Virus record (IMG/VR): IMGVR_UViG_2713896791_000013
Direction: 5' to 3' (one strand)
DNA: 4,516 nt
DNA from: a virus
Taxonomy: Duplodnaviria; Heunggongvirae; Uroviricota; Caudoviricetes
In this document: one piece after another, positions 1-4,516 of the stretch
How the letters are laid out: each line of letters opens with the position of its first letter
Numbering within the stretch: position 1 is the first letter of the stretch
The notes under the pieces: generated by a model
The model's database searches: none
What the model saw: the letters and a program-made list of their open reading frames with translations, nothing else
What the model was told of the DNA's origin: nothing
Translations under genes and position numbers: made by a program

Positions 1-17
1 ACCTTGGTTTAAGAGAA
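1..17. promoter_or_regulatory. Partial crossover site for a serine invertase (left, cix/gix/hix-like); outer half lies beyond the window
   Basis: Bottom strand reads TTCTCTTAAACC-AA-GGT. This fits the recalled hixL (TTCTTGAAAACC AA GGT...) and gixL (TTCCTGTAAACC GA GGT...) pattern of TTC....AAACC, a 2-bp core, then GGT. The site sits at the outer boundary of the repeat, as in P1. Confidence 0.6.
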
Positions 18-681
18 CTCGGTACCAGCGGTGAAAAGATCCCCCTGTTGAGCACGGCTAACACATGGAGTGCGCGCCAGACTTTCAACGGCGGGATCAC
101 CGGGGCGCTGACAGGGAACGCCGACACCGCGACGAAATTGAAAACAGCCATAAACATTAATGGCGTCAGGTTCGATGGTTCTGGTGACATTAATATCAAT
201 ACTCTGGTATCGCGCGGTCGCGTAACGGCCTTGGAGGCGAATGCACAGGGAACATCCGGGATTCAGCTGTATGAGGCATACAACAATGGCTACCCTTCCC
301 CCTATGGCAATGTGCTTCACCTTAAAGGTGCCACCGCTGCTGGCGAAGGTGAGTTATTCATTGGCTGGAGTGGCACGAGCGGTGCCCATGCGCCCGTACA
401 TATCCGTTCGCGGCGGGATACTGATTCTGCCAACTGGTCTGAATGGGCGCAGGTCTATACGTCAAAAGATTCAATTCCCGGCGTCAATGCCAAAGGGGAT
501 CAGGATACTTCCGGCAATGCTGCTACGGCGACCAGATTGCAGACGGCGCGCACTATTAACGGTGTTTCGTTTGATGGTTCTAAAAACATTGAGCTAACGG
601 CTGAAAATTTAAATCTTGAGCAAACCGTAGAACTAGCCGCTGGATCATTGCAGAAAAACCAGAACGGCGCGGATATTCCTG
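1..681. repeat. Left inverted repeat (IR-L), 681 bp, coding for the shared part of the tail fibre
   Basis: Reverse complement of 3836..4516, checked directly at both ends. Three overlapping frames give identical mirrored ORF translations (9..320 with 4197..4508, 241..597 with 3920..4276, and the main fibre frame), which implies nucleotide identity throughout. First mismatch is at 682 (g) versus the complement of 3835 (a). Confidence 0.9.
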
Positions 682-1562
682 GAAAAGATACCTTCACTAA
701 AAATATTGGTGCATGTCGCGCTTTTCACAGTTCTATTAGTACAGGTGCAGGGAACTGGACAACGGCACAATTGATTGAATGGCTGGATTCTCAAGGGGCA
801 TTCAATCACCCATACTGGATGTGCAAATGTTCATGGTCATACGGCAATAATAAAATTATAACCGATACTGGCTGTGGAACTATTCATCTTGCAGGTTGCG
901 TTGTTGAGGTTATGGGTAATAAAGGTGCCATGACCATCCGTGTAACAACGCCAAGCACTTCCACCGGTGGCGGAACCACTAATGCGCAATTTACGTATAT
1001 AAACCACGGTGGAGATTACGCACCAGGCTGGCGGCGTGACTACAGTACCAAAAATCAGCAGCCTGCATTTGCTTTAGGGCAGACAGGAAGCACTGTTGGA
1101 AATGACAAAGCTGTTGGATGGAACTCAATTAGTGGCGTTTATAATGCGACTATTGGTGGAGCATCAACATTGATTCTTCACTTTAATATGAATGCGGGGA
1201 GTTGCCCTGCTGTTCAGTTCCGTGTGAATTATAAAAATGGCGGTATTTTTTATCGTTCAGCGCGAGATGGTTACGGATTCGAAGCTGACTGGTCAGAATT
1301 CTACACCACAACACGTAAGCCATCAGCGGGAGATGTTGGTGCATATACCAAAGCAGAATGTAATTCACGATTTATTACAGGTATTCGATTAGGTACAAAA
1401 TCGTCAGTGCAAACATGGAATGGTCCTGGTTGGAACGATAAATCTGGTTATGTTGTTACTGCCTCAATCAACTCAAATAAGGACGAACTTATTGATACAA
1501 CTCAGGCAAGACCTGTGCAGTATTGTATCAATGGCACTTGGTATAACGCGGGAAGTATTTAA
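3..1562 (+). CDS. Tail fibre protein, C-terminal portion, variant A (5'-partial). Shared region is encoded in IR-L; variant-specific receptor-binding domain from 682.
   Basis: Long ORF ending at TAA 1560..1562. The track's 'M' at 48 is a TTG codon, and the frame has no stop back to nt 3, so the gene starts upstream of the window. Contains the fibre-like repeat motif GNA.TAT.L.TA..INGV.FDGS twice. Followed 2 nt later by a chaperone gene. Confidence 0.85.
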
Positions 1563-1564
1563 TT

Positions 1565-2098
1565 ATGCAGCATTTGAAAAACATCAGATCCGGAAATCCA
1601 AAAACTGTTGAACAATATGAATTGACGCGACAATTCGGTGTTGTCTGGTTGTATTCTGAGGACGATAAAAACTGGTATGAGGAACAAAAGAACTTTCAGG
1701 ATGACACTATAAAAATTGCTTACACATCAGATGGAATTATTGTGGCTATAGATAAAGACGTATCTACAATAAATCCAGAAGGTTTAAGCGTTGTTGAGGT
1801 TGCTGACATTACTGCAAATCGCCGTGCTGACATTTCGGGTAAATGGATGTTCAAAGATGGCGTAGTGATAAAGCGAACTTATACCGAGGAGGAACAGAGG
1901 CAGCAGGCAGAGAATGAAAAACAAAGCCTGTTGCAACTTGTCAGGGATAAAACCCAGCTATGGGACTCACAGCTACGGCTGGGTATCATTTCAGACGAGA
2001 ATAAACAAAAATTAATCGAGTGGATGCTCTATGCGCAGAAAGTCGAATCTACAGACACCTCCAGCCTGCCAGTAACGTTTCCCGAACAACCAGAATGA
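1565..2098 (+). CDS. Tail fibre assembly chaperone (Mu U / P1 U / Tfa family), cognate to variant A
   Basis: 177-aa ORF with ATG at 1565, 2 nt after the fibre stop, and a GGGAAG Shine-Dalgarno-like sequence at 1550..1555. N-terminus MQHLKNI..GN.KT.EQYELT...W.YSED.KNWYEE is recognised from memory as typical of enterobacterial phage tail-fibre assembly proteins. Paralogous to the 2126..2653 ORF. Confidence 0.85.
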
Positions 2099-2101
2099 GA
2101 G

Positions 2102-2121
2102 AAGGCCCGCTATCGGGCCTT
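2102..2121. terminator. Candidate bidirectional terminator hairpin between the convergent chaperone genes
   Basis: Perfect 8-bp GC-rich stem AAGGCCCG / CGGGCCTT with 4-nt loop CTAT, in the 27-bp gap between stop codons at 2096..2098 (+) and 2126..2128 (-). Followed by AATTTT on the + strand; the U-tract is weak in both directions. Confidence 0.5.
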
Positions 2122-2125
2122 AATT

Positions 2126-2653
2126 TTACTCTGGTTTTTGTGGCCATTCTGGCTTTGCCGTATCCACGCGGCTGACCAGAACGCTGTAGCGTTCCCAGGC
2201 TTCCAGTCGTGTACGTTCCTCATCTGTTGCCATATTCAGCCTGACAGCGCGCTCCAGTGGCTGAATAACGCTTTCCGCATCGGAAAGTAACGCGGCCTTT
2301 TGTGATTCGGCCTGTTGTTGCTGTTCTTCTGCCGTATAAATCCGTTTAACCACAGCTCCGTCCTTAAACATCCACTTACCGGAATCATCGGCCCGACGAT
2401 TGGCTGTTATATCGGGGACTTCAACAACGCTAAAGCCTTCAGGATTAAGTGTGGAGGCATCTTTAGTGATGGCTACAATAATATTATTTTCATCGTAAAC
2501 AATCTTTATTGTGTCTGGCTGAAAATTCTTTACCTCTTCATACCAGTTCTTCCCGTCTTCAGAGTAAAGCCAGATAACTCCGTGCTTCTTTGTTAACTCA
2601 TACTGCTCCGGTGTTTTAGCATTACCAATTTTTATGTTCTTTAAGTGGATCAT
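2126..2653 (-). CDS. Tail fibre assembly chaperone (Mu U' / P1 U' / Tfa family), cognate to variant B
   Basis: 175-aa ORF on the minus strand, with its ATG (2651..2653) 1 nt after the variant B fibre stop (2655..2657). About 74% identical to the 1565..2098 product over the first ~123 residues (counted by hand); the last ~55 residues are divergent. Confidence 0.85.
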
Positions 2654-2654
2654 A

Positions 2655-4514
2655 TTAAACGCTCGCTACATTATACCAGGTGCCATTTATATATTTTTGA
2701 ACGGGTCTGTAATAAACGCCAGCTATATTATCGGCAGAATTGGACCCTGTATCCTGAACATTTATACCAGACAATACATGACCTGAAGGGCACTGGAAGT
2801 TCCATGTTTGCCAGTTGTTCACACCATAATATTGCTGTGAGCCAAGCCGAACATCTTTCACATATCGGGAATCAATGTTACCCCAGTTGCTTGGTTGTAT
2901 CTGACCGTTTACAGCAAATATCACCGAGTTATCTGTATTTCGCTGACTATAGAAATGCCAGCCTGAATCATCACCAAGCTCTGCAACAGTTGGTCTTGAC
3001 GAATTTCCCCACAAGTTAAATGATGCATTACGGGCAGCGGTATTTGCACTTGAAAGTGTGAAGAACTTACTTTCCCCAGCCTGAATACCCTTTAATGATC
3101 TTGCTGAACCATTTATAAAGCGGAATACATGCACACCATTAGCATAAGCATCCAGCACCCCATCACCATTTTGTTTAAACCCGGTATCGTTATCTCCTAA
3201 AACTATTGAATTTCCACCCAGGGCATTAGCCGTTCCAATCCCCAGATTTCCGCTAAAAATGGCATTAATACCGAATATTGAGTGAGAACAATAAAACCCT
3301 CGCCCATTGTTAAAATCCAGAATGGCTTGTGCGTTCGTGCTTTCTGTCGCGGGATTAGTTGCTCCCCACTTATATGTTGTTTGACCGACGGTATAATCCT
3401 GAGTTGGAACAATAACCGTTAGCCCTTCTTCAGCAGAAACCCGCACAGGAAAAGCCCTGCCTTCAACGTAAAAAACGCTGCATACATCATCTTCTTTAAG
3501 GCTTGTTACAATGGAATGGATTGCGCGCTCATTAGTCTGATACGTCGAAAAATAACCTGCCGCATATGAACCACGATCAGTCCAGCCACCAGGCATTACC
3601 ATTCCATTGAATTCGCAGTTATTCATTTCGTAATTACCACCGGCAGATGTGGTCGTTATAATCACTCTGGAAGCCAGCTCGCCAGTGCTGCCTGTGGAAC
3701 GCTGGAAAATAACTGGATACCACTTTCCACCAACAGCATTAGACGGCGCGTTAAATACGTACTGCCGCATTCCTTTTTTCTTATCCACCTCGCCTTTGCT
3801 GTAAACATTAATGTTACTCAGGAAGCGATCTTTATCAGGAATATCCGCGCCGTTCTGGTTTTTCTGCAATGATCCAGCGGCTAGTTCTACGGTTTGCTCA
3901 AGATTTAAATTTTCAGCCGTTAGCTCAATGTTTTTAGAACCATCAAACGAAACACCGTTAATAGTGCGCGCCGTCTGCAATCTGGTCGCCGTAGCAGCAT
4001 TGCCGGAAGTATCCTGATCCCCTTTGGCATTGACGCCGGGAATTGAATCTTTTGACGTATAGACCTGCGCCCATTCAGACCAGTTGGCAGAATCAGTATC
4101 CCGCCGCGAACGGATATGTACGGGCGCATGGGCACCGCTCGTGCCACTCCAGCCAATGAATAACTCACCTTCGCCAGCAGCGGTGGCACCTTTAAGGTGA
4201 AGCACATTGCCATAGGGGGAAGGGTAGCCATTGTTGTATGCCTCATACAGCTGAATCCCGGATGTTCCCTGTGCATTCGCCTCCAAGGCCGTTACGCGAC
4301 CGCGCGATACCAGAGTATTGATATTAATGTCACCAGAACCATCGAACCTGACGCCATTAATGTTTATGGCTGTTTTCAATTTCGTCGCGGTGTCGGCGTT
4401 CCCTGTCAGCGCCCCGGTGATCCCGCCGTTGAAAGTCTGGCGCGCACTCCATGTGTTAGCCGTGCTCAACAGGGGGATCTTTTCACCGCTGGTACCGAGT
4501 TCTCTTAAACCAAG
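2655..4514 (-). CDS. Tail fibre protein, C-terminal portion, variant B (5'-partial). Shared region is encoded in IR-R; variant-specific domain 2658..3835.
   Basis: Long minus-strand ORF ending at TAA (complement of 2655..2657). Identical to variant A through residue P211 of the track translation, then unrelated. Frame is open to the window edge; the track start at 4469 is TTG. Variable domain is about 100 aa longer than A. Confidence 0.85.
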
Positions 4515-4516
4515 GT
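3836..4516. repeat. Right inverted repeat (IR-R), 681 bp, mirror of IR-L
   Basis: Same evidence as IR-L; position p on the left corresponds to 4517-p on the right. Confidence 0.9.
4500..4516. promoter_or_regulatory. Partial crossover site for a serine invertase (right), inverted relative to the left site
   Basis: Top strand reads TTCTCTTAAACC-AA-GGT at 4500..4516. The core dinucleotide is AA here and TT at the left end, the inverted orientation needed for inversion rather than deletion. Confidence 0.6.

Follow-up and report, generated by a model that had tools for sequence, protein, structure and literature searches.

We analysed a 4,516-nt stretch of viral DNA (IMG/VR record IMGVR_UViG_2713896791_000013; Caudoviricetes), called the window below, which spans a C-segment of the phage P1 type, an invertible tail-fibre element, from one crossover site to the other. 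Four genes lie in it as two convergent pairs, within and between two long inverted-repeat arms, and each pair consists of a fibre C-terminal cassette and a tail-fibre assembly chaperone (Table 1). The arms are 99% complementary. A first-pass annotation, made by a model from the letters alone, had reported 681-bp repeats, and the arms do match perfectly for 681 nt, position 682 being the first mismatch. The inverted repeat reaches its maximal extent at the window edges.

The same annotation had described both fibre frames as open to the window edges without a plausible start, and this holds. Frame +3 stays open for 519 codons, from nt 3 to a stop at 1560–1562, and frame -3 for 619 codons, from nt 4514 to a stop at 2657–2655; the remaining four edge frames close no more than 32 nt from the window edges. 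The TTG 'starts' at 48 and 4469 are mechanical calls in the list of open reading frames (ORFs). Pfam searches with the window proteins returned gp37_C and Caudo_TAP only, without a recombinase domain, and tblastn with the neighbouring invertase protein Cin gave a best E value of 2.8 in the window. Both searches agree with the earlier statement that no ORF here resembles a serine recombinase of ~190 aa. A scan for sigma-70 promoters found promoter-like sites to be rarer in the window than in shuffled sequences (9 versus 20.8), leaving an internal promoter unsupported.

Table 1. Features of the 4,516-nt window. Positions count from the first nucleotide of the window.
Feature	Position (nt)	Strand	Description
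Inner part of one cix site	1–17		ACC, then the 2-bp core TT (nt 4–5), then the 12-bp inner half-site GGTTTAAGAGAA
Left inverted-repeat arm	1–695	+	Perfect over nt 1–681; encodes ~227 fibre residues common to both forms, downstream of the crossover
Fibre C-terminal cassette 1, S'/Sv' type	3–1562	+	519 codons plus stop, own start absent; Pfam gp37_C
U'-type tail-fibre assembly chaperone, cassette 1	1565–2098	+	177 aa; Pfam Caudo_TAP, E = 1.6e-35; 83% identical to P1 U'
G+C-rich hairpin between the convergent chaperone genes	2102–2121		Terminator-like site; RNA fold -25.4 kcal/mol, z = -6.3
U-type tail-fibre assembly chaperone, cassette 2	2126–2653	-	175 aa; Pfam Caudo_TAP, E = 2.3e-37; 92.6% identical to P1 U
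Fibre C-terminal cassette 2	2655–4514	-	619 codons plus stop, own start absent; open frame
Right inverted-repeat arm	3822–4516	-	Perfect over nt 3836–4516
Inner part of second cix site	4500–4516		Mirror image of nt 1–17; core at 4512–4513

An invertase gene adjoins one crossover site

Megablast against a phage collection matched the window to the C-segments of P1, D6, and P7, with P1 showing 89% nucleotide identity over 71–74% of the window, and complete E. coli phage-plasmids matched it at 98–100%. The nearest records are the E. coli phage-plasmids pUTAK-19-1 (CP157128) and pUTAK-25-1 (NZ_CP157120), 2 nt from the window (99.96% identity). The differing bases are 587 and 1799, and the G at 1799 is specific to the window. 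No fully identical record came from megablast against phages, plasmids, and E. coli genomes, from a search of viral, genome, and metagenome contigs for an exact 41-mer with this G, or from look-ups of the U' protein and of the products of the 604-aa and 504-aa ORFs.

In pUTAK-19-1, the gene cin (561 nt, 186 aa) is read toward the segment, and its last base immediately precedes window nt 1. Its product contains the Pfam domains Resolvase (5e-51) and HTH_7 (3e-18) and matches P1 Cin at all but 4 of its 186 residues. It also aligns end to end with the Mu Gin structures 3UJ3 and 4M6F, with Ser9 at the position of the Gin catalytic serine. Recombinases of the Cin, Gin, and Hin type act on 26-bp sites, in which two 12-bp half-sites flank a 2-bp core, and use an enhancer, located inside the recombinase gene, that is bound by the host protein Fis. 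The enhancer homologue here spans cin nt 19–90; it is identical at 68 of 72 positions to the stretch annotated as the inversion enhancer in P1, and fully identical to that of D6. The first-pass annotation had anticipated just such a neighbour, an invertase with an internal enhancer immediately outside one crossover site and recognizable in the flanks by a catalytic serine and a helix-turn-helix, and the nearest relatives bear it out on each of these features.

We placed the crossover cores by homology with the annotated P1 RefSeq record, whose 20-nt cixL and cixR are reproduced exactly at the two borders. The outer half of each cix site lies beyond the window, and at the cin border it shares sequence with the final three codons of cin. 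When we searched the 16.5-kb locus for AAACCNNGGTTT, there were two good matches, one per border and in inverted orientation; the next-best candidates carry two mismatches and are no commoner than in shuffled sequences. This count bears on whether the segment could be a shufflon like Min of p15B, with additional internal crossover sites that would yield three or more fibre forms. In favour of this, the two systems use related recombinases, and homology of this region to p15B is noted in the P1 record itself. However, the only good cix-like sites are those at the two borders, and the relatives examined show whole-segment orientations only. We therefore regard a shufflon as extremely improbable.

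We also noted a hairpin, UCCCCCCUU-N7-AAGGGGGGA, at 5412–5436 (+) of locus L001, 3 nt upstream of the cin start (-16.7 kcal/mol, z = -2.4). It covers the only Shine-Dalgarno-like run of cin and is terminator-like on the other strand. D6 has conserved this hairpin, P1 lacks it, and it might keep translation of Cin low.

Both orientations occur in otherwise identical plasmids

Comparing 16.5 kb of pUTAK-19-1 and pUTAK-25-1, we found flanks that match at 6000/6000 and 5999/6000 nt around identical segments in inverted orientation. A second pair of plasmids, pRHB39-C21_3 and pRHB39-C17_3, is identical over 8.5 kb apart from the orientation of the segment, which matches exactly once one copy is reverse-complemented. 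Near-identical plasmid records with a readable junction divide 6 versus 5 between the two orientations, and contigs encoding an identical U' divide 4 versus 4. The first-pass annotation had allowed that the element might prove to be a decayed remnant, fixed in one orientation, if neither an invertase nor an upstream fibre ORF was present in its flanks. The flanks hold both. Loss of switching is further contradicted by the four genes, which are open and full length, by cin and both cix sites, which are intact, and by the near-equal census; the inverted plasmid pairs refute it, and we give it practically no credence. Orientation is thus best treated as a variable state and not as a strain difference when such plasmids are compared, and assemblies will break at the segment or fix one orientation at random. 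An example of a break is the viral contig L004 (IMGVR_UViG_2531839476_000011), whose position 1 is the exact inner edge of an arm (window-equivalent nt 3823), a typical assembly break at an invertible repeat.

Relatives with diverged arms allowed us to locate the exchange. Arm identity is perfect in the window, ~95% in the related loci L015–L018, ~84% in L011, L012, and L014, and 86–93% in D6 (L007). In L015–L018 the arms differ at 29–30 positions, the outermost of which lie 20, 23, and 26 nt from the end, and every one of these markers stays with its own cassette in both orientations. Because all markers keep this linkage, the exchange must fall within nt 1–19, the stretch that holds the cix core. 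In L011, L012, and L014 it falls within the outer 91 nt. Judging from these markers, inversion in the diverged-arm relatives is site-specific at cix and not the product of homologous recombination.

The arms of the window itself are another matter, given that 681 nt of perfect repeat is ample substrate for homologous recombination. Inversion might then proceed mainly by RecA-dependent recombination between the arms, or by a recombinase supplied in trans, with cin dispensable; the first-pass annotation had kept this as a fallback should no invertase lie nearby. In the two inverted plasmid pairs the only arm markers are at positions 587 and 680, such that a homologous exchange could fall anywhere outside them, and the identity of the arms here, set against 84–95% in relatives, suggests gene conversion. 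But intact cin and cix are found at the borders of every relative whose flanks could be read, and the 19-nt stretch and outer 91 nt to which the exchange maps are too narrow for recombination across 0.68 kb. With an invertase present and the exchange mapping to cix in relatives, the fallback is unneeded, and we consider a mainly homologous or trans-acting route very unlikely.

A weaker version of the same idea deserves more room. The perfect arms suggest that the two copies in the window lineage evolve in concert or were recently made alike by gene conversion, and the pUTAK plasmids carry a single-nucleotide polymorphism at position 587 in one arm only. Ongoing gene conversion could keep the 681-nt arms identical, with RecA-dependent crossovers between them adding a second, Cin-independent route of inversion beside the site-specific switch. 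We think this combination doubtful, though a small recA-dependent share of inversion is conceivable in the perfect-arm lineage.

One cassette at a time is joined to the constant part of S

At the end of the segment away from cin, the frame of the facing cassette continues outside the window for 477 codons to the start of the fibre gene S; this constant part is Sc. Upstream of Sc lie a homologue of R and then a homologue of gene 16. In all 12 related loci whose flanks we could read, the segment lies between the invertase gene and Sc-R-gp16. S is 1097 aa long in pUTAK-19-1, where cassette 2 is fused to Sc, and 997 aa in pUTAK-25-1, where cassette 1 is fused, and the first 704 aa of the two proteins are identical. 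The 5' part of the fibre gene is thus outside the second crossover site, as had been foreseen, and the frame open at nt 3 extends upstream through the 477 codons in the other orientation.

On the cin side, the cassette frame is closed by a stop 31 nt past the window edge, and this short extension contains no start codon; only one cassette can therefore be made at a time. The first-pass annotation had held that only the cassette facing an external promoter and upstream fibre part should be expressed. The closed, startless frame on the cin side supports that statement; for the external promoter there is a candidate, which we recognized from a sequence motif. By reading all intergenic regions of the plasmid CP157128 we found the motif AAAT[CA]ACA-N7-nAnnnT, which occurs 11 times in the 92-kb plasmid versus 0.65 times in shuffled sequences. 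All 11 copies are intergenic, and 10 of them stand directly before late-looking genes (capsid, portal, tail, holin, R). The copy upstream of R (L001 12436–12456, -) lies ~1.9 kb beyond the window and ends 38 nt before the R start, and the candidate late-promoter sequence there is AAATCACAAACTGAGCATACT. A terminator-like hairpin precedes it, as in P1. P1-type backbones that contain the same segment have the P1 late box AAGTTACTT at the equivalent place upstream of R. The motif may be the late-promoter box of the D6 lineage, which would imply a different specificity of Lpa. At the other end of the putative operon, the hairpin between the chaperone genes is likely a bidirectional terminator, closing the fibre operon whichever way the segment lies.

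The two cassettes offer different fibre tips. Cassette 1 shares 85.6% amino acid identity with D6 S'. A Pfam scan of the 619-codon cassette 2 gave zero matches, and its unique part (391 aa) is unlike the S of P1 or D6 and resembles P2-type fibres by tblastn and PHROG: over its full length it shares 57% identity with a P2-like fibre (phage 9W), and over its C-terminal half 63% with P2 gpH. Similarity of this unique part to P1 Sv/S is confined to the last 96 aa (2655–2945, -), at ~41% identity. This P2-related tip was not found in P1 or D6, and the lineage probably alternates between two uncharacterized host ranges. We also observed that the U chaperone of cassette 2 is close to P1 U, yet its partner fibre tip is P2 gpH-like, a pairing that is unexpected if chaperone and tip co-evolve.

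In public annotations the silent cassette is entered as a gene in its own right and named 'tail fiber protein' or 'phage tail protein' (window 96–1562 and 2655–4421, with equivalents in loci L008 and L009). The arbitrary internal starts in those records (window-equivalent 96, 267, 729, and 4421) are annotation artefacts.

A probable two-state switch of fibre tips

We conclude, with a probability of roughly 0.93, that the window is the C-segment of a D6/P1-like phage-plasmid, a two-state, Cin-driven switch that chooses the C-terminal part of the fibre and the matching chaperone for the constant front of S. The anatomy of the segment, its neighbours in near-identical records, its two orientations in nature, and the position of exchange in relatives are direct observations. 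In the mechanism we propose, Cin would be made from the fixed gene adjoining the segment and would pair the two cix sites, helped by the enhancer in cin and host Fis. It would then cut both sites at the 2-bp core and exchange strands, inverting the 4.5-kb segment. Late transcription would start upstream of R, pass through Sc into the facing cassette and its chaperone (S-U or S'-U'), and end at the central hairpin. The cassette next to cin, which lacks a start codon and runs into the stop 31 nt outside the segment, would stay silent, and virions would carry one of the two fibre tips.

Several considerations weigh against this reading. The flanking genes were read from relatives at most 99.96% identical to the window, the nearest being 2 nt away, and not from the source record. 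That Cin catalyses the inversion, that Fis is required, that transcription is late, and that host range changes are points carried over from what is known of P1, and a simple G-N13-C scan of the enhancer homologue for Fis motifs was uninformative. The P1 late box AAGTTACTT, which lies upstream of R in P1, is absent from the pUTAK backbone, and we take the motif upstream of R to be the likely late promoter from its enrichment and position. Finally, in the window lineage, with arms identical over 681 nt, sequence alone does not separate a crossover at cix from homologous recombination.

The segment in P1-type and D6-type backbones

The pUTAK backbone is D6-like, its right flank being 98% identical to phage D6 from inside Sc outward, and the D6 record (MF356679) has cin, cixL, and cixR annotated in the same layout, the two cix sites on the basis of homology. 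The inversion region has been described as the most divergent part among D6-like plasmids (PMC6799933). CP157128 also carries glnS, encoding glutamine-tRNA ligase, at 14083–15744, a gene already noted for D6-like plasmids in the same paper (PMC6799933).

Segments of this kind are found on two types of backbone. P1-type backbones (L015–L018), which have lydC and the P1 late box and whose Cin differs from that of P1 by 1 aa, carry the same kind of segment, and so do the D6-type backbones L001 and L011–L014. The segment shares 98% identity with the window in L015–L018, which are P1-type, and in the D6-type locus L013, and ~93%, as an ungapped count, in L011, L012, and L014. From this distribution we conclude that the segment, with or without cin, evidently moves between P1-type and D6-type lineages. 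The presence of the same segment in both types of backbone points to a cin-to-cix module exchanged as a unit.

Comparison with known invertase systems

The mechanism proposed here is already known: it is the textbook Cin/C-segment switch of P1, in this case in a D6-like phage-plasmid. The P1 C-segment and Cin have been described in the same terms (PMC6906374). The P1 segment (NC_005856) has the same order of lysis genes, cin, cixL, Sv', U', U, Sv, cixR, Sc, R, and gene 16, and it shares the long arms (636 nt in P1, 681–695 nt here). It differs in that the unique part of cassette 2 here is not P1 Sv, and in that the backbone here lacks lydC, the P1-type cin promoter region, and the late box AAGTTACTT. 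The first-pass annotation had argued by analogy with P1 and Mu; the layout is that of P1 as it supposed, but the relation to P1 is one of homology and the backbone is D6-like, not that of P1 proper.

D6 is closer in some respects. Its cin-side flank and cassette 1 are 92% identical to pUTAK, its holin-cin spacer is 1 base off, its R-upstream spacer is 2 bases off, and its Cin is 2 aa off. However, the D6 arms have diverged to 86–93% in two blocks, whereas those here are perfect, and its cassette 2 is not the same.

The G segment of Mu (Gin/gix) likewise has Sc outside and Sv-U and Sv'-U' inside, and cassette 1 with the chaperone genes is 81–84% identical in DNA to Mu, D108, and SfMu. In Mu the inverted repeats are 34 bp and the segment is ~3 kb; the repeats here are not short in this way, with 0.68 kb of fibre coding sequence duplicated inside the segment. 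The Min system of p15B shares a related serine invertase and fibre-gene cassettes, but it has six crossover sites and many arrangements, compared with two sites and two states here. The flagellar phase switch of Salmonella, in which Hin acts on hix, is driven by an invertase of this family as well. What turns over there is a promoter along with the hin gene, whereas here promoter and recombinase are fixed and the 3' ends of the coding sequence are swapped. Of the features that define the P1-type Cin/C-segment system, the adjoining invertase, the paired crossover sites, the enhancer homologue, the split fibre gene, and the inversion itself were found in the window and its relatives, and the late promoter has a candidate.

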